The translations under genes were made by a program, and so were the position numbers. Below, in pieces: positions 18,404-57,487 of a stretch of 64,000 nucleotides of DNA. This stretch comes from Pyrinomonadaceae bacterium. Its GTDB lineage: Bacteria > Acidobacteriota > Blastocatellia > Pyrinomonadales > Pyrinomonadaceae. Under the pieces are notes generated by a model that made no database searches, was not told the DNA's origin, and saw nothing but the letters and a program-made list of their open reading frames with translations. The stretch is from contig JAGOBH010000007.1 in the NCBI GenBank assembly GCA_017983495.1, positions 59,278 to 123,277 of the forward strand, written 5' to 3'. Every line of letters starts with the position of its first letter. The first letter of the stretch is position 1.

Positions 18404-18527
18404 TTTCCTACTATTTCCGACTAATTCCTACTAAGTAGGAACGTGTTCTTCGTCCAATCCAGTCTATCTATCTGTAAATACTGCACTTAGCCAGATGCCG
18501 AGATCTTGGACCCTGTCCCGTTGTCCC
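18404..18527. repeat. partial copy (copy 3) of the dispersed iteron/palindrome module
   Basis: TTTCCTACTA, TTTCCGACTA, ATTCCTACTA (10-bp phased) then AGTAGGAA, forming the palindrome TTCCTACT-A-AGTAGGAA (18425-18441). CTGTCCCgtTGTCCC lies at 18513-18527, as in copies 1 and 2. Confidence 0.6.
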
Positions 18528-18709
18528 AGCAAGTTCCCACATCCCGCACACGACATTCGTCCGGCCCGATCAAAGCGGCAAATTTAACGGATCGATGCCG
18601 TAAGCTCCGGACGATCAACCGCGATCAGTATCATAGTATAACACGAACGTTCCATTCGGCGATCATTATTTAAGTGATGAACGCCCGGACAGTTCGTGCC
18701 TTGTTCATT

Positions 18710-34921: not shown

Positions 34922-37045
34922 CTACTTTACCTTCATATCCAGATTCTTGACGAGAAAGCCGTAGATGTCGGCAAGCTCCTGGATCTGTTTCGATGTCGGC
35001 TTGCCGGCACCGTGGCCGGCTTTGGTCTCGATGCGGATCAGGACCGGAGCCTTGCCTTTCTGGGCATGCTGCATGGCTGCTGTGTACTTAAAGCTGTGAG
35101 CAGGGAATACACGGTCGTCATGGTCTGCCGTGGTAACGAGGGTCGCCGGGTATTTGGTGCCCGGTTTTGCCTGATGATACGGCGAATAAGCGTACATCGC
35201 TTTGAAATCGGTTGCGTCATCCGGCGAACCATAATCGCTCGTCCATGCCCAGCCGATCGTAAACTTCGGAAAGCGGAGCATGTCCATTACACCGACGGCG
35301 GGCAATGCCGCGGCAAAGAGGTCGGGACGCTGATTGAGCACCGCACCGACGAGCAGGCCGCCGTTCGAACCGCCCTGGATGGCGAGCTTTTTGTTCGATG
35401 TGTACTTGCTGTTGATGAGGTATTCGCCGGCGGCGATGAAATCGTCAAAGACGTTCTGCTTTTTGAGACGCGAACCGCCTTCCCACCAGGTCTTGCCGTA
35501 CTCGCTGCCGCCGCGGATACAGGCGACCGCGTAAACGCCGCCCATCTCCATCCAGGCAACCCGCGAGACCGAAAATCCGGGCGTCTGAGCGATGTTGAAA
35601 CCGCCGTAACCATAGAGGATCGTCGGGTTCTTACCGTTCAGCTTGATGCCCTTTTTGTGAACGATGAACATCGGGACCTTGGTGCCGTCCTTGGACGAGT
35701 AGAACACCTGCTTGACCTCGTACTGCGACCCATCGAACTTGACCTTGGCTTCGCGAAACTTGGTGCTCAGGCCGGTCTTCATGTCGTAGCGATAGATGGT
35801 CGGCGGGGCGTTGTAGCTCGAATAGCTGTAAAACGTCTCGGTATCGGTGCGTTTGCCGCCAAATCCGCCGGCGGAACCGATGCCCGGAAGTTCGACATCG
35901 CGGACAAAACGGCCGTCCGTTTCGTAGATCTTGATCTTGGTGTAGGCGTCCTTCATATAGTTGAGGACGAACTGGTTATTAATGAACTGCACGCCGTTGA
36001 GCGTGTCGGCCGTTTCCGGAATGACGTCACGCCAGATCATCGAACGGTCGAGAACGTTGCGGGCGACGACCTTGCCGCGTGACGCGTCCTTGTCCGTGCG
36101 GAAATAAAAGACCGGGCCGTCATTGCCGATGAACGAATAGCTGTTCTTTAGATCGCTAACGAGCGGTATGATCGGGGCGTTTTCCGCGGTCAGGCTCTTA
36201 AAATAGACCATGTTCATTCGCTCGGTGCCCTTGCCGACCGAGATGACCAGCCAATTGCCGTCCTCGCTGACGTTGCCGCCGACAAAATACTCTTTGTTGT
36301 CCGGGCGTTCGTAAACGACCTTGTCCTGCGCCTGCGGCGTACCGAGCTTATGAAAATAGAGCTTCTGAAAGTAGTTCTGGCTCTTGAGCTCGGCACCGGC
36401 TTCGGCGTCGGGGAAACGGCTGTAGAAAAATCCGCTGTTGTCATTGAGCCACGAGATGCCGCCCTGACGGTTTGGCGAAAGCGTGTCGGGCAACAGACGG
36501 CCCGAGGCGACGTCCATGATCTTCCATTCCGTTCGGTCCGAACCGGCGATCGAGACGCCGTATGCCCACAGTTTGCCGTCGTCGGTAAAGGACGAACCGT
36601 TAAGTGCGGCGGTGCCGTCGGCCTTGATCTTGTTCGGGTCGAAGAAAACTTCGCCCTGATCGTTGATCGAACGTGCCTTGTACCAGACGCTCTGATTTTG
36701 CAGGCCGTCGTTCTTGGAGTAAATGTAAAAGCCCTCGGCGATCTTTGACGGAGCCGAGTAACGCTCGTAGTTCCAGATCTCGGTCAGGCGGTTCTTGATC
36801 TTTTCACGCTCTGGGATGGTCGCCAGATACGAATCGGTGAGCTTGTTTTCAGCTTCGATCCAGGCGGTCGTTTCGGCCGACTCGGTCTGTTCCATCCATC
36901 GGTACGGATCGGCGACCTTGGTGCCGTGATATTCGTCAACCTGATCGCCGCGCCGCGGTTTCGGATATTCGAACGTGCCCTGAGCCGGAACGCTCGCCGC
37001 CACAAAGGCGAAAACGAGCAAAAATGCAGATATTCTCTTATACAT
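34922..37045 (-). CDS. prolyl oligopeptidase (S9A), secreted
   Basis: 707 aa. Signal peptide, beta-propeller N-terminal half, catalytic GGSNGGLL, and C-terminal ...HGAGKP. Confidence 0.92.
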   Translation of the reverse strand: MYKRISAFLLVFAFVAASVPAQGTFEYPKPRRGDQVDEYHGTKVADPYRWMEQTESAETTAWIEAENKLTDSYLATIPEREKIKNRLTEIWNYERYSAPSKIAEGFYIYSKNDGLQNQSVWYKARSINDQGEVFFDPNKIKADGTAALNGSSFTDDGKLWAYGVSIAGSDRTEWKIMDVASGRLLPDTLSPNRQGGISWLNDNSGFFYSRFPDAEAGAELKSQNYFQKLYFHKLGTPQAQDKVVYERPDNKEYFVGGNVSEDGNWLVISVGKGTERMNMVYFKSLTAENAPIIPLVSDLKNSYSFIGNDGPVFYFRTDKDASRGKVVARNVLDRSMIWRDVIPETADTLNGVQFINNQFVLNYMKDAYTKIKIYETDGRFVRDVELPGIGSAGGFGGKRTDTETFYSYSSYNAPPTIYRYDMKTGLSTKFREAKVKFDGSQYEVKQVFYSSKDGTKVPMFIVHKKGIKLNGKNPTILYGYGGFNIAQTPGFSVSRVAWMEMGGVYAVACIRGGSEYGKTWWEGGSRLKKQNVFDDFIAAGEYLINSKYTSNKKLAIQGGSNGGLLVGAVLNQRPDLFAAALPAVGVMDMLRFPKFTIGWAWTSDYGSPDDATDFKAMYAYSPYHQAKPGTKYPATLVTTADHDDRVFPAHSFKYTAAMQHAQKGKAPVLIRIETKAGHGAGKPTSKQIQELADIYGFLVKNLDMKVK

Positions 37046-37187
37046 ATGGCGAACTAAACTCCTGATAGAAAAGATTTGCGTTAATTATACGGCGCAAGGT
37101 CATGATTTCAAAAATGGTGTATCAACTAGGTCGCGTCCTTTATCCGCGGCCTTTGCCTTCACGTTAGCGAACTCGGCGTTATAGATC

Positions 37188-37606
37188 GGTTCCACGCAGA
37201 GACCGGAGAGTTTTTCGCAGAGAGTTTTGAGTTCCACCTTTAGTTGGCTCTTCGGTGACTTCGACCCTTCGTTATTCGACATTCGAAACTCGACATTTTC
37301 CTACTCTTTCCCACTATTTCCGACTATTTCCCACTAAGTAGGAATCTTTAATAATCCGAATCGTTATTAACATTTGTTGTATCAATGCTTTACGCATCTG
37401 GGACAGATAAATTAGGTTAGTTGGGACAGGCTAAACGTTCTAATTGCTCGATTTATGCCAACTGTCCCACTGTCCCGCCGATTTTTCAAATTTTTTTCGG
37501 CTTTCCAGTCTGTCTCGCCATTGGCCTTTTCACTTTTCCTCTTTTCCCCTTTTTCACTTTGACCCTGTAACAACTATTATATCATCAGTGTCAACTGTGG
37601 CGATGG
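37188..37606. repeat. dispersed non-coding module, copy 1 (iterons + palindrome + GGGACAG/CTGTCCC motifs)
   Basis: Four perfectly phased 10-mers at 37297-37336 (TTTCCTACTC, TTTCCCACTA, TTTCCGACTA, TTTCCCACTA), then inverted AGTAGGAA. Long runs are identical to 54047-54427, for example GGAATCTTTAATAA and ATCAATGCTTTACGCATCTG.GACAGATAA.TTAGGTTAGTTGGGACAGGCTA. Confidence 0.75.
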
Positions 37607-37671
37607 GTTAAGTCTTGCGCATCAGGGGATGTCTTGGAACAAAAATGCTATCTGATCTCAGTCGATATTTA

Positions 37672-37758
37672 GCCGCAGATTACGCGGATGAAGCAGATCT
37701 TCAGCGGATCTATTTAGAATTATCCGCGTCTATCCGTTTTTTCTGCGTTATCTGCGGT
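37672..37758. repeat. REP palindrome (GCCGCAGAT..ACGCGGAT family)
   Basis: GCCGCAGATTACGCGGATG ... ATCCGCGTCTATCC ... ATCTGCGGT. This element creates the listed ORF 37615-37836. Confidence 0.6.
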
Positions 37759-38190
37759 CAAAATATTCGTTTGTCCACGAACTTAGGATCTTTCAGACCA
37801 CGTCGAACCGACGCCGGCGGCGTCGAATGTCTATAGGACGCGATGCAGGATAAAAGGAAACATACGACCCCGGCCGGGGTCGAACGTTATCGGGTGGTGA
37901 TCGATGTTCTATAAACGTGCGATCCCTCCGGGATCGAAGAGGAGAGTTGTTCACGCCCTACGGCCGACGATCAACGAACAACGATCCGCGAACAGAAATC
38001 CTTTGACACCGATAGCGATATATTTCAAAATAGCCTCATTATGCCCTACGCCTCCCAGCGATACTTAGAAGACACGATCATCTCAAACCGCGCCGCGTTC
38101 GGAGACAGGGCATTTGTCTGATCATCAAAAACACCGAACGTTCAGGTCCGGACAAATTGCAAGTTTGACCCGGTCCTTTTTAATTAAGTT

Positions 38191-38832
38191 ATGACAGCAT
38201 TGAAAGTCGTTAAGCCAAAACTGCTTGCAGCACTTGCAAAGGTGGTAGACGAGCCGCTGAGTTTGCAGGGATATTCGCGCGGGAAGAACGGTCTGATCTA
38301 CAAACGCAAACTCAATGATTCGGTGCAGGAGATCAATTTCATTGCTGATTGGTACCCGAGATATCGACCGGGTGCCGAGGCGTTCATTCACCCTGTGTTT
38401 TTGGTGAGCATGCCGAAGATAAACAAACTAGGGCTTTATCTGGTAAACGGTGACAAATTTCTTCTCGGGGGAGCCAGATACGTAGCGGGTCAACCCATCG
38501 AGTTCACCGTTCCAAAAGAGAAGCGTCCGATTTATTTTGCAACCGGAGAGAAGGGGTTCGTAGAGGTTTGCGGTTCGATCCTGGCATTCCTGCGTCGAAC
38601 GGTGCTGCCTCTGCTCGACGAACTCTCGACACCCGCCGATCTGGTTCGGGTTTACGAATCGAACGACCCACGCGTTTGGAAACAGAAACATTGGCACGTT
38701 TACATTGCAGCGGCATATTGCGAGTTAGGCATGATCGAAAAAGCACGCGAGGTGATAAATGAACAGTTTGCAAGTCTCGGACTGCGGAGACAGTATTCGA
38801 TGGTTTTTGAATCGCTCGCAGCTCTAGAATGA
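38191..38832 (+). CDS. hypothetical protein (213 aa; possibly DUF4304-like)
   Basis: Clean ORF in an AT-richer islet. N-terminal pattern ...LQGYSRGKNGLIYKRKLNDSVQEINF... is reminiscent of DUF4304-type proteins (weak recollection). Confidence 0.6.
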   Translation: MTALKVVKPKLLAALAKVVDEPLSLQGYSRGKNGLIYKRKLNDSVQEINFIADWYPRYRPGAEAFIHPVFLVSMPKINKLGLYLVNGDKFLLGGARYVAGQPIEFTVPKEKRPIYFATGEKGFVEVCGSILAFLRRTVLPLLDELSTPADLVRVYESNDPRVWKQKHWHVYIAAAYCELGMIEKAREVINEQFASLGLRRQYSMVFESLAALE

Positions 38833-39011
38833 AACTGGAGGCGTTGATTCGGCGTATCGGTGATCCGGGAATTACAGACGAATTTTGTATTTCTGCTAAA
38901 ACACCTTTGAATTCTGAGGTCGTGTCATTCTATCTCGAAAATAGAGAACCTGGGGTCTGGCCTAATTTTATGCTCCAGGATACGAAGGGCCATTCCCCTA
39001 CCCTTGGATGA
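38829..39011 (+). CDS. small hypothetical protein (60 aa)
   Basis: Start overlaps the upstream stop (ATGA). No similarity recognised, so this may be non-coding. Confidence 0.3.
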   Translation: MKLEALIRRIGDPGITDEFCISAKTPLNSEVVSFYLENREPGVWPNFMLQDTKGHSPTLG

Positions 39012-39045
39012 ATCAATAGCCATTGTTAAATGATGCAATTAATCT

Positions 39046-39528
39046 ATGATCAACAGCGAAAAAATCGCAGTTCACGATTTCCCTGCGTGGCGAGAAAAGG
39101 CCGACTTTATCATCGCAATCCGTCTTGGAGAAGAGTTAGGCATTGACGACATGTTGGAATGGGAGCAATTGTGGGCACGAAAGGTGGACGGCAGTCGTTT
39201 TGAGCTTTGTTGTATTCCGTTTTTCGCGTATGGACTCGCGCTGGGCGACGTGGTCGAAACCAAACCGTCAGAACAAAGAAAATATGTTGTTGAAGCGGTC
39301 AGAATTCGCAGTGGGCGGAGGACCTATCGAGTGTTTTTTGAGTCATTGGTCCGATGGAATGAAATAATTGATGAAATAATTTCACTTGGTTGCACTGTTG
39401 AGGTTAGGTGGAAGCAAAGTAAGTTAGTCGCAGTTGACGCGGCTCCCGATATCAGGCTCGATCTACTGGAGGCGTATCTTAGAAAACTGGAGCAAAGGTC
39501 CGAAATAAGATGGGAGAATGGAAACTAG
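39046..39528 (+). CDS. DUF4265-like protein (immunity-protein-like)
   Basis: ...EWEQLWARKVDGSRFELCCIPFFAYGLALGDVVET...RTYRVFF... fits the E.LWA....y.l.nIPFfa.g.alGDvVe core I associate with DUF4265. Confidence 0.7.
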   Translation: MINSEKIAVHDFPAWREKADFIIAIRLGEELGIDDMLEWEQLWARKVDGSRFELCCIPFFAYGLALGDVVETKPSEQRKYVVEAVRIRSGRRTYRVFFESLVRWNEIIDEIISLGCTVEVRWKQSKLVAVDAAPDIRLDLLEAYLRKLEQRSEIRWENGN

Positions 39529-39537
39529 TTCTTCTAA

Positions 39538-39792
39538 TGTGTCATTGCCGATGCGACCGGACAGATCACATCACGCCGTGACTTCATGCCATTCGGCGAA
39601 GACCTGAACGTCGGCGTCGGAAACCGCAACGGCGACGCGGGGCTCAAATACTCGATGCCCGGCGACAACATCCGCCAAAAATTCACCGTATACCAAAAAG
39701 ACACCGAAACATCCCTAGACTTTGCCGAGGCTCGGAAAGATTGTGGGCCGGGCACCGCGATTCTGATTGATTTGATTCGTCAGTTGTGTTGA
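39538..39792 (+). pseudogene. remnant of an RHS/YD-repeat core (C-terminal core fragment, no start, no toxin tip)
   Basis: The open frame reads ...RRDFMPFGEDLNVGVGNRNGDAGLKYSMPGDNIRQKFTVYQKDTETSLDFAEAR... This matches the RHS-associated core signature (R.Y.PFGE ... RQKFTG.E.D.ETGLDYF.ARYY). It then decays (KDCGPGTAILIDLIRQLC*) and abuts the GGDEF-EAL gene's 3' end. Confidence 0.65.
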
Positions 39793-39799
39793 GATTCTT

Positions 39800-42040
39800 T
39801 TAGAAGACCGCCATGTTGGGGTCGGCGTAGGTTTCTTGGGCTGGTTCTTCGACCTTGATGAGGGCGACGGGGAGCCAGCTTTTGTGTTCGTATAGGGCTT
39901 TGTCGATGTTTTCGGCGGTCTGCGGACGAGCGAGCAGGTAGCCCTGGCCGTAATCGCAGCCGAGATTTTGGAGCAGATGAAGCTGGGTCTCGGTCTCGAT
40001 GCCCTCGGCGATGACGCGCATCTTGAGGTTTTTGGCGAGCGAGATGATGGTCTGCAGGATCTCGCTGTTCTCGCCGTTCTCACCGACGCTGTAAACGAAC
40101 GAGCGGTCGATCTTGAGGCTGTCGAAGGGCAGCTTATGCAAAATGCTGAGGCTCGAGTAACCGGTGCCGAAATCGTCGATCGAGAGTTTGACGCCGAGCT
40201 GCTTGAGGCGGTTAAGGACGTTGATCGTGTGATCGGCGTTTTCCATCGCCACGCTTTCGGTGATCTCGAGCTTGAGGCACGACGGGTCGAGCTTGGACAT
40301 CCCGATGGCGTGTTCGACGTCGGCGATCAGGTCGCCGTGCATCAGGTGTTTGCCCGAGATGTTGACGCTGACCATCAGGTCGCGATACGACGGATTGATC
40401 TTTTGCCAGAGTGCAAGCTGATTGCACGTCTGCTCGAGTATCCAGATCGTGATCGGGATGATCAGGCCGGAATCTTCGGCGATCGGGATAAATTTGTTTG
40501 GCGGGATATTGCCAAATTCGAAGTGATTCCAGCGGAGCAATGCCTCGAATCCAAGCAGATGTCCGTCCTGCAGATCGACGAGCGGCTGATAGTTCATCGA
40601 CAATTCGCCGCGATCGATGGCTCCGCGAAGGTCATTTTCATACCGGACGCGCTCGATGAACCGGAAACGCAATTCTTTGGTAAATACAGCAACGCCGCGA
40701 TTCATCTCTTTGGCGTAGTGCATCGCGATGTCGGCGTCACGGAGTACCTCTTCGGGTGTGTTGTATTCGGCGTCACACGGGGCGATACCGACGTTGACGC
40801 TGATCGTAATATTGTTGCCGCTCAGGCTAAAGGGCTGCGAAATGCTGTCGTATATTCGCCGCGCCACTTTTTGTGCCTTGCCGACGGTCGACAGGTTGCG
40901 CAGGATGATCGCAAATTCGTCTCCGCCGATGCGGGCGACCGTGTCGGTCGGGTTGAGCATTCGGACAAAGCGTTTGGCGGCGACCATCAGCACCTTGTCG
41001 CCAAACGTGTGGCCAAGACTGTCGTTGATATTTTTGAAACGGCTGATATCGAGGAAAAGCACGTGAAACGTCACGGACGGGTCCTCTTTATACTCGTGGA
41101 TCAGCTCGCGGAGAATGTCGCCCAGCTTTTTGCGGTTAGCGAGATTGGTCAGGGAATCGTGCAGTGCCGCGTGCTGAAAGTCTTTTTCGCTCTTACGCAG
41201 AGCGATGTTGGCCCGCTCTTCCTTATCGAGCGAGATGGCGAGCTGCGACGCGTGGCTCTCGGCCTCGCGGCGAAGGTCGCGTTCGGCCTCGGCCTTTTTG
41301 CGCTCGGCAAGCTCCGCCTGATCGATCGCCTCGTTGATCTCGCCGATCGATTGGCGATAACTCAGATAAGCGATCGCAAGAGCCAAAAACGCAATGCCGC
41401 CCGTGATGATATCGCCGAAACTAATGATCTTGTAGGTTAGTCCGGCAAGGCCGGCGCCGACGATCTGCGTCATCGAACTCGAGAAACAATCTCGCCGCCA
41501 CGTTGCAAATAGATTCGAGCCGTCCTTGAGGGATTGAAAGACCGCGGCCAGGATCGATGAGGTTGCAAACTGAACTAACGCGAGAAATCCGAGGAATCCA
41601 ACGAGAGCCTGAGTGCTGTCAGGGTCGATCGAACGGAAGGCAAAAGTATGGACGAGGTTCCAGGCAAGTAGCGTGACGGTGGTTGAGACCGTCGAGATCG
41701 ACACATTGGTCGGTATCATCAGCCGGCCAAACGGGAAGCCTTTCTGCTTGAGGTAATAGCAATTCGCCAGCGTTTCAGACGCCGCAACAACTATCGCAGC
41801 CGGGCCGCCGAAATAAAGAAAGGTGAGAAATACGAGGGCATCGGAAAAGCTGATCGCAAACTTGGAACGCGGCAACGCAAGACTCATTCTCGGAGCCACA
41901 ATTACCGCAAATGCCAGTACGCAGAGAAACTCCCAGCTAAAAGCCGCCATTGCCATATTGGCAAGGGCGACCGCGAAGCAGAAGATGCCTGCGAGGATAA
42001 TTATACCCTTAGCATAGTTTGATGCTTGTTTACGATCCAT
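39800..42040 (-). CDS. membrane-bound GGDEF-EAL protein (diguanylate cyclase / phosphodiesterase)
   Basis: ORF 39800-42115 trimmed to MDRKQASNYAKG (ATG 42038-42040). About 6-7 TM N-terminal domain, a coiled coil, RIGGDEFAI, EALLRW and DDFGTGYSSL. Confidence 0.9.
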   Translation of the reverse strand: MDRKQASNYAKGIIILAGIFCFAVALANMAMAAFSWEFLCVLAFAVIVAPRMSLALPRSKFAISFSDALVFLTFLYFGGPAAIVVAASETLANCYYLKQKGFPFGRLMIPTNVSISTVSTTVTLLAWNLVHTFAFRSIDPDSTQALVGFLGFLALVQFATSSILAAVFQSLKDGSNLFATWRRDCFSSSMTQIVGAGLAGLTYKIISFGDIITGGIAFLALAIAYLSYRQSIGEINEAIDQAELAERKKAEAERDLRREAESHASQLAISLDKEERANIALRKSEKDFQHAALHDSLTNLANRKKLGDILRELIHEYKEDPSVTFHVLFLDISRFKNINDSLGHTFGDKVLMVAAKRFVRMLNPTDTVARIGGDEFAIILRNLSTVGKAQKVARRIYDSISQPFSLSGNNITISVNVGIAPCDAEYNTPEEVLRDADIAMHYAKEMNRGVAVFTKELRFRFIERVRYENDLRGAIDRGELSMNYQPLVDLQDGHLLGFEALLRWNHFEFGNIPPNKFIPIAEDSGLIIPITIWILEQTCNQLALWQKINPSYRDLMVSVNISGKHLMHGDLIADVEHAIGMSKLDPSCLKLEITESVAMENADHTINVLNRLKQLGVKLSIDDFGTGYSSLSILHKLPFDSLKIDRSFVYSVGENGENSEILQTIISLAKNLKMRVIAEGIETETQLHLLQNLGCDYGQGYLLARPQTAENIDKALYEHKSWLPVALIKVEEPAQETYADPNMAVF

Positions 42041-50770: not shown

Positions 50771-50877
50771 GTGTGAGTTTGTTGAGTCTGTCGAGTCTGT
50801 TGAGTCTATCGGGTCTTTCGAGTCCGTTGGGTCTGTTGACCCGATCGACTCGATCGACTCGATAGACTCCCCAGACT
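50771..50877. repeat. 9-nt periodic tandem array that folds back on itself
   Basis: About 7 units of GAGTCTGTY-type 9-mers, followed by about 4 units of the complementary GACTCGATC type. Example arm pair: GAGTCTATCGGGTC / GACCCGATCGACTC. Confidence 0.65.
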
Positions 50878-53967: not shown

Positions 53968-54046
53968 GTGCGCGGCGGACTTCCGTCACTTCTTTCTCCG
54001 TTTTGCGAACTTTGCGTCCACCTCAGCGGACTTTGCGTTAACGATC

Positions 54047-54427
54047 AGTTCCACGCCGAGGCCGGAGAGTTTTTCGCAGAGAGCTTGGAGTACCAACTTT
54101 AGATGCCTATTGGGCGAATTCGAATATTCACAATTCGTCGCTTTCCTACTATTTCCTACTAAGTGGGAATCTTTAATAACGCGAATCGCTATGAACATTT
54201 GTTCTATCAATGCTTTACGCATCTGAGACAGATAACTTAGGTTAGTTGGGACAGGCTAATCGTTCCGACTGTTTGATTTAGGCCAAATGTCACACTGTCC
54301 CAGCGATTTGTCAAGTTCTTCGGCGTTTCAGCCTGTCTCGCCTTTAACCTTTTCGCTTTTTCACTCTCCCCCTTTTCACTTTGAACCTGTAACAAATGTA
54401 GTATCATAAGTGTCAAATGTGACGATG
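54047..54427. repeat. dispersed non-coding module, copy 2
   Basis: TTTCCTACTA x2 (54142-54161), then inverted AGTGGGAA, then the same downstream blocks as copy 1 through ...TTTCACTTTGAACCTGTAACAA...GTGTCAAATGTGACGATG. Lies between two convergent 3' ends. Confidence 0.75.
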
Positions 54428-54584
54428 CGTATCGAACGTAAGATATGAGTTTTTGCTTTACAGACGATCAACGATTCACCTTTCATTATTCACAATGGTC
54501 AAACCCTAACGTCTGAGCGGACCGTAAAAGGGCGAAAATGGTGACGTCGAAGTTCCGGCCCCGACATACTTCGCTTCGAAGAGC

Positions 54585-56135
54585 TCATTTTAAGCGCGTT
54601 GTGAAGTATTTGCTGACGATAGAATTCCATGGCTCCGGGATTTTCATAGCGCTTAGGTTTGCTTTAACGAGAGCTTGGCAGTCGCTATCGACGCCGCGGT
54701 CCATTTCACTCACAAACAAATTGATCTCTCGTGGAGAGCCCAGTGCCCCCAATCGAGCGGCTTCTAGCATAAACCGTTGGCCTTGCGTCTGTAGCGTATG
54801 GATACGGTCGACCACCTTGTATATGCCTCCAACTGAGGACATAGACTTTTCAGTTAATCCGAAAATGTTCCGTTTGCCCGCATCATAAAATTCGCGCACC
54901 TTAATTTCCGAAATATCGGTGTACTTTGCTCCCATCGTGGGAGCGACTGCAAGACGCTTAACCTCGGATTTTATCTGCCGCACGGCCTCAGATCGAGCGT
55001 TCTTCCAGATCCATGCGTCCGCTGCATGGTATAGGAATGATTGCTTGGCGGCTGTTAGTTCGTCTTGAGCCCGAGGTATGGACGACTTCACGAGTATTCT
55101 TAACCGCTGCGAACCGGAGGTGACCTCCGCGTCCAACTCACTTTTGATCCCGGCCGCTTTATACATTTCCTGAGCGATCTTCCCAGCTGTTGCACGCTCC
55201 TTCCCCTCTGCGTTGGCCAGGTCCCACGTATTTGAACTCCGTGCACTTCGAACTTCATCTGAGTCGGCTTCGAGTTGCGCTGCGACATCTTCGGGCGCAG
55301 CATTTAGCCGTGGCGGATTTATCTCGCCAGGTGGCGACTTTGGTATTTCCGGCCTAACGGGAATTGGTGTCACAGGTTGAGGCGTCCATGGTTCTTGATA
55401 AGGCTCAGGAATAGAAGGGCCCCATTCCAACGCGGACTCGTACGGCCCCGGAATAGCTTTTCTTGCGGTCTTTGGCGGGAGCAACACGCTGAGCAACATT
55501 ATTATGGCTTGCCTGTCTCGCTTGGAGTCGCTATCGTACGCGGCCGTCCGCTCGGCAAGCTGCCTGGCAGCCCGTTCGGTTAGTTCGAGTTGTTTTTCGG
55601 CGGCTTTCAGTTCCTCAACCAGCTTTTCACGCTCCGATTCGCGCCTAGTTATGTCCGCAATGTATCCTGCGGTGCGTGCCGGATATGTCCGGATTATGGT
55701 CTCCGACAAGGCGAGCGACGAACGTAGCTCTTCTACGCGGTAGCGGTTTCTGGCGGCATCGTTTACCAGCAATTTGTGTAGTTGGTTGGCCGCGTCCAAA
55801 AATTGCGATTCCGTATTGTGGGGAAGGTTCAGCCAGCCTTGCTTATCAAGCAGGTTATATTTATCCGACAGGGCTACCACGACCGCTCGATAACGCGAGA
55901 TGGCATTTTGCAAGGCGATCTGACGAGGATCAGGCGGCGCAGGTCGTCGCGTATTCTGATTGCCTGACGTGCAGGCGTCAGCCCCGGGCGACTGACAATT
56001 TACAAATACCTTTCTTCCATCGGGACACGTATATGAGCAACTCGTCGGCAAAGGTTGAGAAACAGTAATTTCAGCAGGGGCCGCCACAAAAATCACGATA
56101 CTGAACAGCAATTTCCAAACTCTCTTATTCAACAT
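54585..56135 (-). CDS. secreted hypothetical protein (516 aa; Cys-rich N-terminus, coiled coil, Pro-rich linker)
   Basis: Signal peptide MLNKRVWKLLFSIVIFVAAPA. No family recognised. AT-richer than the surrounding genes. Confidence 0.65.
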   Translation of the reverse strand: MLNKRVWKLLFSIVIFVAAPAEITVSQPLPTSCSYTCPDGRKVFVNCQSPGADACTSGNQNTRRPAPPDPRQIALQNAISRYRAVVVALSDKYNLLDKQGWLNLPHNTESQFLDAANQLHKLLVNDAARNRYRVEELRSSLALSETIIRTYPARTAGYIADITRRESEREKLVEELKAAEKQLELTERAARQLAERTAAYDSDSKRDRQAIIMLLSVLLPPKTARKAIPGPYESALEWGPSIPEPYQEPWTPQPVTPIPVRPEIPKSPPGEINPPRLNAAPEDVAAQLEADSDEVRSARSSNTWDLANAEGKERATAGKIAQEMYKAAGIKSELDAEVTSGSQRLRILVKSSIPRAQDELTAAKQSFLYHAADAWIWKNARSEAVRQIKSEVKRLAVAPTMGAKYTDISEIKVREFYDAGKRNIFGLTEKSMSSVGGIYKVVDRIHTLQTQGQRFMLEAARLGALGSPREINLFVSEMDRGVDSDCQALVKANLSAMKIPEPWNSIVSKYFTTRLK

Positions 56136-56544
56136 ATTCCACGCACTCCCTCATGAAATGGTCTGTCAAAGTTATAATGAAACTGTTCCGAATATACTGC
56201 GGTGGTCTTTCGAGATTAGAATGTTGACGAGTTGGGACACCCAAACCTAATACCCAACTACGTCCGTAATATTTGCCAAAAACCAAAGAGTAAACATTCT
56301 CACTAACATCTACGCCTTTCAGCAAGCCATGTCAAGAGAGAAAATCGGTGTAGAGCCTGCATACCTGCGGCACGTGCAGACGTAACATTGGCACTCGGAT
56401 CTCGCGGCGTGTGTTGCAACGGTGAGTGATACTCTGGTTAAAACCTGAAGGTACATAATGTGGCAGACCACTAGCTAAAACTAGTGGCAACTTATATCGA
56501 ATGCCTTAGATTTTATTGAAACCCCGGTGGTATCGAGATTAATG

Positions 56545-56581
56545 AAAAAAGCTGCCAGGAAATTAATCCGGGCAGCTTTTT
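56545..56581. terminator. bidirectional rho-independent terminator
   Basis: AAAAAAGCTGCC-aggaaattaatccg-GGCAGCTTTTT, 25 nt after the stop of the minus-strand gene 56606-57487. Confidence 0.7.
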
Positions 56582-56605
56582 GGGGTTTAACGATCGTCGG
56601 TGCGG

Positions 56606-57487
56606 TTACGGGGTCATCATTACGCCGAAGTCGAAGAATTTGGCGCCGATGCCGGCTCCGGTGTTGGCGTTTCCGGAGTTCATGAGCATAAATCCGTATT
56701 CGCCTTTCTTGAGGTCGCTCGATGCGGTTACCTTAAAGATGCCGTTGCCGAGGTCTTCGGCTTTGAGTCCGACGACGTATTCGTCGGAAAGGCCGCCTTT
56801 GGCTCCCCACGAATTGCTCTTCGCGATGGTGACTTCGCGGTTGTCGCTACGTTGATTGAACCGGACAAGCGTAAATTCATTTGGGGTCGAGGGAACTCCG
56901 CTCGAGGTGTTCATGCCGCCGCTCGAGACGTCCAGGTAAAAGTAAAATACCGGAGCGGTCGACTGAAGCTGCAGCTTTGCACTGCGGCCAGGAAGGTTCG
57001 TCTTTGTTTTGACCTTGCCGAGTCCGAAAGGCGTCATCGACGCTGTGAACTGGCCGCCCGTGCGGTTCTGGCCCGAAACATTGGGGTCGAGACGCGTCAT
57101 TTTGCGAACGCCATCTTTTTCTTCGTAAAGATAGATGCCATAACCGTGTTTCGACATCGGGTCGTTCGGGTCGCCGGCGGCCTCGGTCGAGGCTGCACCG
57201 GATGACGTGGTCGTTGAGCCAAGCGGACGGCCGCTCTTGGCCTCGAGCATTGCTCCGACAATGTCGTCGCCGACGCCGGCCTGTTTCAGCTTGATCAGCG
57301 AATCGGTCGAAAGGTCAAAGTTCGTCGTGGACGTCTTGATCTTGCCGATAATGATCGAACTGCTAAGCCCGGCCTTGGTGAGCGAGATGACCTCGTCGTT
57401 GGTCATCGTTTCCTGGGCGACGGCCGCCGCGGACATGACCATCACGAGCGACAGGCACATCGCGAAGATACTCAATTTTCGTTTCAT
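56606..57487 (-). CDS. secreted hypothetical protein (293 aa)
   Basis: Signal peptide. N-terminal MTNDEVISLTKAGLSSSIIIGKIKTS..FDLSTDSLIKLKQAGVGDDIVGAML module, a Ser/Thr linker, and a beta-rich C-terminal domain. Confidence 0.7.
   Translation of the reverse strand: MKRKLSIFAMCLSLVMVMSAAAVAQETMTNDEVISLTKAGLSSSIIIGKIKTSTTNFDLSTDSLIKLKQAGVGDDIVGAMLEAKSGRPLGSTTTSSGAASTEAAGDPNDPMSKHGYGIYLYEEKDGVRKMTRLDPNVSGQNRTGGQFTASMTPFGLGKVKTKTNLPGRSAKLQLQSTAPVFYFYLDVSSGGMNTSSGVPSTPNEFTLVRFNQRSDNREVTIAKSNSWGAKGGLSDEYVVGLKAEDLGNGIFKVTASSDLKKGEYGFMLMNSGNANTGAGIGAKFFDFGVMMTP

Follow-up and report, generated by a model that had tools for sequence, protein, structure and literature searches.

A dispersed non-coding mosaic repeat of a Pyrinomonadaceae genome and its possible origin in the control region of a helicase-like ATPase gene family

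A non-coding repeat module at positions 37150-37605 of a 64,000-nucleotide stretch of DNA from a Pyrinomonadaceae bacterium (the window) belongs to the largest repeat family of its genome. The window is C19:59278-123277 of the bacterium's own 4.0-Mb assembly (G000, 19 contigs). The module is a mosaic of separately repeated words, its copies in the window lie in spacers that are compact in relatives, and its central word, the box TGTCCC(A/G)C, is associated in several genomes with genes for an ATPase with an AAA_25 domain and a helix-turn-helix (HTH) motif, here called AAA_25-HTH. Judged from sequence comparison, the module is one copy of a mosaic dispersed repeat whose core is probably an orphan AAA_25-HTH control region acting as a protein-binding array at the DNA level, a reading held with moderate confidence. 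It most likely acts as protein-binding DNA rather than as an RNA gene. An earlier reading of the same letters (the original prediction) had offered three candidates: a structured non-coding RNA family, an element resembling MITEs (miniature inverted-repeat transposable elements) and a protein-binding array. The last is the best supported of these, the MITE-like description is half right and the structured RNA is not supported.

Architecture of the module

Copy 1 had been placed at 37188-37606. Its homology to other copies spans ~37150-37605, slightly broader than predicted, and each motif named in the original prediction (iterons, palindrome, boxes, TTGACC and TATCAT) was found at its given position. 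Two types of module, A and B, occur in the genome, and copy 1 is of type A. Its parts are as follows.

37150-37605, plus strand: whole type A unit of copy 1, from the left arm through to the right end, homologous to 10 other full and 2 truncated copies
37150-37229, plus strand: left arm, with CTTTGCC/CGTTAGCG-type words and then two copies of CGCAGAGA (37196-37203, 37217-37224); ~29 genome copies
37236-37249, no strand: small palindrome CCACCTTTAGTTGG (consensus CCAACTTTAGTTGG), an independent hairpin like repetitive extragenic palindromes (REPs)
37297-37336, plus strand: four 10-bp iterons TTTCC[T/C/G]ACT[C/A] in exact 10-bp phase (starts 37297, 37307, 37317 and 37327)
37328-37344, no strand: 17-bp palindrome TTCCCACTAAGTAGGAA, made of the last iteron and an inverted half-site (7/8 pairs), kept in all type A copies
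37348-37370, no strand: AT-rich inverted repeat TTAATAA-N9-TTATTAA, with pairs kept and no compensatory change
37400-37434, minus strand: two GGGACAG boxes (37400-37406, 37423-37429; the TGTCCC box on the minus strand), then GCTAA
37462-37476, plus strand: tandem box doublet CTGTCCCaCTGTCCC (CTGTCCC doublet); 72 genome loci have tandem TGTCC(C/T)
37480-37502, plus strand: T-rich tract GATTTTTCAAATTTTTTTCGG directly 3' of the boxes, kept after the boxes in all copies
37510-37560, plus strand: variable spacer with a degenerate box CTGTCTC (37510-37516) and two low-complexity words TTTTCACTTT
37565-37603, plus strand: right end with CTGTAACAA, TATCAT (37580-37585), GTGTCAA (37588-37594) and CTGTGGCG; sharp repeat boundary

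The GC content of the module is 42.8%, against 54.0% for the window. When the module was tiled against its own genome, copy number along it varied from 1 up to 27, and the same profile shows 37170-37960 to be a chain of separately repeated words. The left arm is common to types A and B and has weak copies in three genomes of the same genus (G005, G011 and G021). The CCAACTTTAGTTGG hairpin occurs in both orientations in many same-genus genomes and in one genome of the same class, and the palindrome piece with its adjoining CTTTAATAA has the inverted orientation in type B. T-rich tracts of the TTTTTGAAAAAA type are also present in relatives.

The 10-bp iterons are a genome-specific variant of the box (TtTCCnACT versus TgTCCCACT). 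They share nine of ten positions with box CTGTCCCACT (family D2), and (c/a)TTTCCCACT differs from cTGTCCCACT at a single position.

The spacer at 37510-37560 is common to copies 1 and 2 only, a different spacer being present in other copies. TTGACC stands at 37559-37564 in copy 1, and the repeat stops sharply ~18 nt past TATCAT. On the minus strand the right end reads TGATATAAT, an extended -10-like site.

Boxes upstream of the AAA_25-HTH gene

Arrays of TGTCCC(A/G)C boxes in tandem are conserved 100-250 nt upstream of AAA_25-HTH genes in the own genome, in G049 and in public metagenome-assembled genomes (MAGs). Such direct tandem arrays, with 3-8 copies spaced 8-10 bp apart in several genomes, favour the suggestion of a protein-binding array. 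Like iteron-type systems, the gene-linked arrays combine tandem direct repeats and an A/T-rich tract beside a protein gene; the window copies are orphan arrays without a gene.

The own genome has four paralogues of the gene (C7:748434-750083, C4:291-1949, C3:273996-275645 and C17:400237-401328). On C7 a stand-alone box unit lies ~150 nt upstream of the 549-aa gene at 748434. On C3 two units, each consisting of a triple box and a left arm, are followed by the promoter. The C4 paralogue opens its contig and shares the promoter-proximal sequence. The C17 paralogue is partial, with two in-frame stops, and no box array was found upstream of it. The C3 and C4 paralogues adjoin genes of restriction-modification type (EcoRI-like methylase, DUF1829), and the only repeat of the genome longer than 1.2 kb is the pair C3:273951-275749 and C4:188-1994, which is 94% identical and encodes a paralogue of the protein.

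In other genomes, loci L144, L145, L146, L147 and L149 have 2-8 tandem TGTCC(C/T) boxes, which are spaced 8-10 bp and lie ~90-250 nt ahead of the start codon, and L144 and L145 have no other tandem boxes in ~17 kb. Outside G000 an array lies within 450 nt upstream at 13 of 34 homologue loci, with just 5 arrays in the other 303 kb, and six of the seven homologue loci matched over >400 aa have an upstream array. The arrays of L144, L145 and L146 are direct repeats only. As these cannot pair, the conserved property is the box itself and not GGGACAG:CTGTCCC pairing.

The layout of the module is also found at the gene. Locus L149, which is syntenic with the C7 locus (ECF sigma operon ... proS), has the complete arrangement of a box, two inverted boxes, GCTAA, spacer, two boxes and T-tract, and the order box-box-GCTAA recurs both there and upstream of the gene at C7:748265-748290. 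In the module the boxes are followed by the T-tract, (CAAAGATC), TGTAACA, TATCAT and GTGTCAA; upstream of the gene the order is boxes, T-tract, (CAAAGATC in several), -35, TGCAACA, -10, GTGTCAA/GTCAATA and ribosome-binding site. By these motifs the right end of the module appears collinear with the AAA_25-HTH promoter and leader.

Within the genome the parts of the module are closely coupled. Thirty-six of the 39 iteron loci have a tandem TGTCC(C/T) array within 300 nt, and 33 of the 36 sites matching TA[TC]CAT-N2-3-GTGTCAA have a box array within 350 nt upstream (chance 0.006 each). It is because of this coupling, the collinear order and the one-position difference between iteron and box that the module is read as an orphan, amplified control region.

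The protein is ~550 aa long (the C7 product has 549) and matches AAA_25 (E 4e-18) and DnaB_C, with a central HTH at about residues 300-335 and a beta-rich C-terminal domain without family assignment. Its PHROG match is DNA primase/helicase, and PADLOC and NCBIfam matches are weak. The AlphaFold model has a pLDDT of 78 and, in the PDB, its top fold match is the T7 gp4 helicase domain, followed by Rad51 and KaiC. Homologues, from MAGs of Pyrinomonadaceae and Chloracidobacterium, are labelled just 'AAA family ATPase', and on public contigs the gene is solitary amid housekeeping genes. The family was found in 28 of 36 genomes and the box word in 10 of 36; among the 60 relatives sampled, both occur in this genus only.

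Other subfamilies of the ATPase were also considered. An exact 7-mer count for separate tandem repeats in each paralogue subfamily gave no clear signal beyond a few loci. One of these is L175 (G014:C1, upstream of 1138441), where about five ~20-bp direct repeats (AAAGTTGCATATAACA-like) precede a distant ATPase paralogue, a hint that other subfamilies have upstream repeats of their own.

A mosaic repeat family

Counting copies in the complete genome, a check proposed in the original prediction, gave 79 BLAST pieces. The family comprises 11 type A cores that are full, 2 more that contig ends cut off, and ~17 type B elements. Type A cores are 80-95% identical in pairs (median 91%). Type B shares the left arm (...CGCAGAGACCGGAGAGTTTTTCGCAGAG) and right end (CTGTAACAAnTATTGTATCATCnGTGTCAACTGTGGCG) of type A, and its interior holds a long REP-like hairpin, the inverted iteron/palindrome piece, a GCTAAC hairpin and the word TGTCCCGTTGTCCCAACAAGTTCCCAC. 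Together the two types are the largest repeat family in a self-comparison of the genome. As in bacterial interspersed mosaic elements (BIMEs), the sub-motifs are extragenic and each has its own copy number and its own taxonomic spread.

A search of the whole genome with the box doublet found two further layouts: a triple-box word with ~53 occurrences, and stand-alone units of ~110 nt, in which a box and two inverted boxes precede GCTAA and, after a spacer of ~35 nt, two boxes and the T-tract follow. The ~28 elements have unrelated housekeeping genes on either side (clpX, glyA, feoB, ruvX, asd and purB among them), in divergent, convergent and tandem contexts alike. GGGACA[GA] was rejected as a genome-wide word such as DUS, Chi or KOPS, its 789 occurrences being about the chance level by our own estimate. 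The octamer CAAAGATC is ~4.7-fold over-represented in the genome (577 versus 123 expected; 13 versus 2.7 in the window), including inside genes; window positions include 9145, 17198 and 36740.

Two further copies lie in the window.

53990-54430, plus strand: type A copy 2, with 2 iterons (54142, 54152), boxes at 54225, 54248, 54287 and 54295, TATCAT at 54402 and GTGTCAA at 54410
18404-18541, plus strand: 'copy 3', a diverged small unit with 3 iterons and an inverted half-site (18404-18441), then TGTCCCGTTGTCCCAGCAAGTTCCCAC (18515-18541)

The iteron number thus varies as predicted, with 4, 2 and 3 at the loci 37297, 54142 and 18404. The seven occurrences of TTTCCNACTA in the window, where 0.23 are expected, are confined to three loci (18404, 37307 and 54142), and CTGTCCC occurs 12 times (4.7 expected). 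Copies 1 and 2 have a mean column identity of 81% over 638 alignment columns, which include unrelated flanks. No open reading frame (ORF) common to both was found on either strand; their indels are not multiples of three, so that none is shared, and the predicted pair of ~400-bp copies without a conserved ORF holds. The minus strand of the left arm or spacer was likewise rejected as the source of a small protein, as the frames differ between copies.

Spread among relatives and insertion in the window

Sixty relatives were sampled (61 genomes with the own genome), including same-genus and same-class genomes. Searches of 24 same-genus species, 16 same-class genomes and GTDB representatives did not find the type A core, apart from partial matches in G021, which are weak. 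An exact-pattern scan of GTDB representative genomes gave three chance matches only, in unrelated phyla. The right end of the module was not found in the relatives, and tandem iterons, with 56 occurrences in the own genome, are absent from 59 of the 60 relatives.

One soil-metagenome contig has a type A copy, 95.6% identical to the copy at C16:27540, at a non-orthologous locus. In this contig (L195, Ga0138256_10119133) the module is bordered by the 3' end of a serine recombinase/resolvase gene, by a 3' remnant that is IS110-like and by the start of a transposase gene of the IS110 family. The resolvase and IS110 genes were set aside, none being present in the own genome. The related species G051 (loci L102-L108) has a unit of ~40 bp, TGTCCCaTGTCCCACTGTCCCACCGTGTCCCACACGC, by itself at many sites, often abutting gene ends and at L107 possibly within a coding region.

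Both window copies lie inside lineage-specific insertions. At the copy 1 locus, the distance from the end of a GGDEF-EAL gene to the start of a prolyl-oligopeptidase gene is 77-174 bp in 10 of 11 same-genus genomes and 2757 bp here, where the gap holds copy 1, a module 'R2', REP hairpins and an islet of three genes (immunity-like). At the copy 2 locus, a zinc-ribbon gene and a gene of 293 aa are ~15-60 bp apart in three relatives and 2641 bp apart here, the gap containing copy 2 and a 516-aa gene (secreted protein). Compared with same-genus genomes, the two insertions (~2.6-2.7 kb) span 37046-39802 and 53968-56608, and each opens with a module copy. Base-exact empty sites were not recovered because the flanking proteins are only ~70-84% identical to those of the closest relatives; with about 75-80% amino-acid identity in flanking genes, the relatives have diverged too far.

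Proposed origin and function

In the scheme suggested by these comparisons, the native control region would consist of tandem TGTCCC(A/G)C boxes, direct or in inverted pairs around a ~35-nt spacer, followed by the T-rich tract, a sigma-70-like promoter whose spacer contains TGCAACA, and the GTGTCAA leader element just before the gene. This region, minus the gene, would have been joined to other repeat words (left arm, small palindrome and low-complexity arrays), and the joined unit would have multiplied in intergenic DNA to about 30 copies. The boxes and iterons may be bound by the HTH of the ATPase as operator, iteron-like or loading sites; this is suggested by their position and by analogy with iteron/Rep and origin-binding-helicase systems. 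Orphan copies may act as extra binding sites, and the right end may be able to fire transcription outward.

Although this is doubtful, the TGTCCCAC boxes and the iteron variants could be loading or origin-like sites for a chromosomally encoded SF4-type helicase with an HTH, the ~30-70 orphan arrays serving as its assembly sites. Were this so, the arrays might serve to titrate the copy number of the protein, to unwind or over-replicate DNA locally, or to let the helicase drive the spread of the repeat, and this would be an undescribed protein-DNA system of Blastocatellia-type Acidobacteria.

Several observations weigh against reading the module as an orphan control region. Among the 61 genomes searched, tandem iterons are restricted to the own genome, and the G000 paralogues show none upstream. 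A TGTCCC array is lacking from about 20 more distant paralogues. The protein is linked to the box by position only. The right end has a poor -35 (GATCAA) and its resemblance to the promoter consists of short collinear motifs, of which CAAAGATC is weakened as a specific marker by its over-representation genome-wide. Repeat copies are not independent observations, so that the counts within the genome overstate the support. By a hand tally, 18 of 28 right ends face a co-oriented gene, which is not significant.

Alternative explanations

The module might instead encode structured small RNAs or large-hairpin intrinsic terminators, with GGGACAG:CTGTCCC pairing followed by a U-tract, but this is very improbable. 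RNAalifold does predict nested helices (box1:box4 and box2:box3) at -32 to -34 kcal/mol, the T-rich tract lies directly 3' of the boxes in all copies and in relatives, the loops of two stand-alone elements fold better than shuffled sequences (z about -3) and some stand-alone units lie just 3' of gene ends. However, no Rfam family, including Acido-1 and Acido-Lenti-1, which the original prediction had named for comparison, matched the 64-kb window at the gathering score, and at E <= 10 the region 36900-38200 gave two chance-level matches only (mir-5897 and DUF805b). The proposed check for base-pair covariation was negative on both strands: the RNAalifold covariation term is -0.13 kcal/mol on the plus strand and +0.56 on the minus strand, and double changes (2 of 47 and 2 of 44 pairs) are all outside the box helices, the power of this test being limited by the 80-95% identity between copies. 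The pairing of GAGACAG in copy 2 with CTGTCTC had been noted; the two are indeed exact complements, but the CTGTCTC segment is present in copies 1 and 2 only. Box pairs are broken without compensation in C12:213 and, in both helices, in copy 2 (GAGACAG/GGGACAG and ATGTCAC/CTGTCCC), and the direct-only arrays of L144, L145 and L146 cannot pair at all. Loop folding compared with shuffles gave mixed z-scores with a mean near zero, and ~0 in relatives. With regard to intrinsic terminators, the module has a stem and a T-tract; its loop measures 32-45 nt, elements stand in every kind of gene context, and the scan makes no call. Nor is it probable, though somewhat less remote, that the modules are mobile promoter cassettes in which an outward promoter at the right end rewires expression of the downstream gene. 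The repeat ends sharply ~18 nt after TATCAT, its right end is collinear with the real AAA_25-HTH promoter and leader, the next gene is co-oriented at 5-6 of the 7 loci where R2 follows, and the hand tally of 18 of 28 points the same way. Against such cassettes, the gene that copy 2 and nine other elements face is convergent, with its 3' end towards them, the -35 is poor, and a consensus promoter scan found only weak plus-strand sites (9/12), the stronger one being on the minus strand.

The remaining alternative is a selfish, non-autonomous element (MITE- or BIME-like), moved by a transposase or by recombination between repeats, which merely picked up the boxes and has no host function. It is unlikely, but it has the most to be said for it among these alternatives. 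The element is short, non-coding, multi-copy and dispersed, as a MITE is, and its intergenic copies lie beside unrelated housekeeping genes. The core is absent from the 24 same-genus species and the closest relatives are compact at both window loci, the soil-metagenome copy is at a non-orthologous locus, contigs break within copies, and the genome has 13 Y1-transposase-like matches (Y1_Tnp; RAYT/IS200-like). In contrast, the proposed search for terminal inverted repeats found none between the ends of 37100-37660 (7-nt seed), the left arm and right end being unrelated, and no target duplication can be defined because the left boundary differs between copies, the right boundary being sharp after CTGTGGCG. 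Self-comparison of the genome revealed no insertion sequence (IS) with the module ends, and the sole repeat longer than 1.2 kb carries the AAA_25-HTH gene. Beside the four clear RAYT genes stand REPs of other types (~100-bp inverted doublets of distinct sequence), and TGTCCC/GGGACA boxes are not enriched around the 13 Y1 matches; mobilisation by RAYT was therefore rejected. A selfish element would also leave unexplained why a box array is conserved upstream of one gene family where the repeat family is absent. An orphan control region of the AAA_25-HTH gene is preferred to a purely selfish element.

Two other sources were rejected. Integration linked to tRNA genes had been considered from the right end (...TGGCG) and one tRNA-like downstream repeat, and ARAGORN found no tRNA at 25 of 27 right ends. 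Cassettes of four-helix-bundle genes (PF05635) were rejected as the source of the left arm, as the six such genes are not beside modules. The four clear RAYT genes are at C12:12901-13245, C12:114493-114831, C17:308432-308764 and C3:1650-1976, and one REP type that flanks them also follows the right end of some modules.

Neighbouring repeats

Copy 1 is abutted by a separate repeat, outside the type A unit.

37610-37835, plus strand: module R2, with palindromic CGCAGAT/ATCTGCG words; 7-10 copies

R2 (~230 bp) is often directly 3' of type A or type B right ends, at several loci. With further REPs it forms common blocks of >1 kb upstream of unrelated genes, two of them BNR/Ycf48-like. REP-type hairpins (CCCCGGCCGGGGTCGAAC ... 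GCGATCCCTCCGGGATCG) follow at 37860-37925, with ~12-14 genome copies. Elsewhere in the window, 50771-50877 is a 9-nt periodic array (GAGTCTGTY-like) that turns into its own complement, its word being distinct from the TGTCCC boxes.

Comparison with known systems

The BIMEs and REPs of enterobacteria, like the BOX elements of Streptococcus pneumoniae, occur outside genes in many copies, do not code for protein, recombine a set of sub-motifs, contain protein-binding sites and have a species-specific repertoire. The module is similarly an extragenic, multi-copy, non-coding mosaic of a few sub-motifs in varied order and orientation. However, its unit is 450-600 bp rather than 40-150 bp, and its key words are 8-10-bp direct repeats and not one palindromic unit. 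Unlike REP/REPIN-RAYT systems, the TGTCCC boxes do not flank RAYT genes.

Iteron and origin-helicase systems include RepA/incC of P1 and the alpha protein of phage P4, which has TGTTCACC octamers in ori and crr. As in these, tandem repeats and an A/T-rich tract directly precede the promoter of a gene whose product is a putative replication-type DNA-binding protein, direct and inverted repeats occur in variable number and extra clusters lie away from the gene. In contrast, the gene here is solitary and chromosomal, with at least one paralogue syntenic across genomes, has no integrase, primase or partition gene, and each chromosome has tens of orphan arrays. Its product is an SF4/RecA-like ATPase with an HTH, and not a winged-helix Rep.

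The Correia elements of Neisseria are MITEs with outward promoters. The module is, like them, small, non-coding and dispersed in intergenic DNA, with promoter-like ends and possible protein-binding sites, but it differs in that it lacks terminal inverted repeats, a target duplication that can be defined and a related IS that bears a transposase. Correia-type MITEs are reviewed in PMC3184786 and PMC2229807. Intergenic arrays of directly repeated TAACTGA in Beggiatoaceae, for which a post-transcriptional role was proposed (PMC4679880), resemble the boxes in that a short word is directly repeated in many intergenic regions of one lineage. The word is another one, and the boxes are tied to the promoter region of one gene family and lie inside a larger mosaic repeat.

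Conclusions

The repeat is real and clearly non-random. It is of an ordinary kind, a mosaic intergenic repeat; its tie to a helicase-like family is unexpected. Dispersed mosaic repeats are common in bacteria, usually without a tie to a host protein. Here the core repeat word is also the conserved upstream array of an uncharacterised family of helicase-like ATPases with an HTH, which gives a testable pair of protein and site. If the protein does not bind, this would be an ordinary lineage-restricted mosaic repeat. If it does, the unannotated 'AAA family ATPase' family of soil Acidobacteria would gain a DNA target, and the largest repeat family of the genome would be explained as the control region of a gene amplified as orphan sites.

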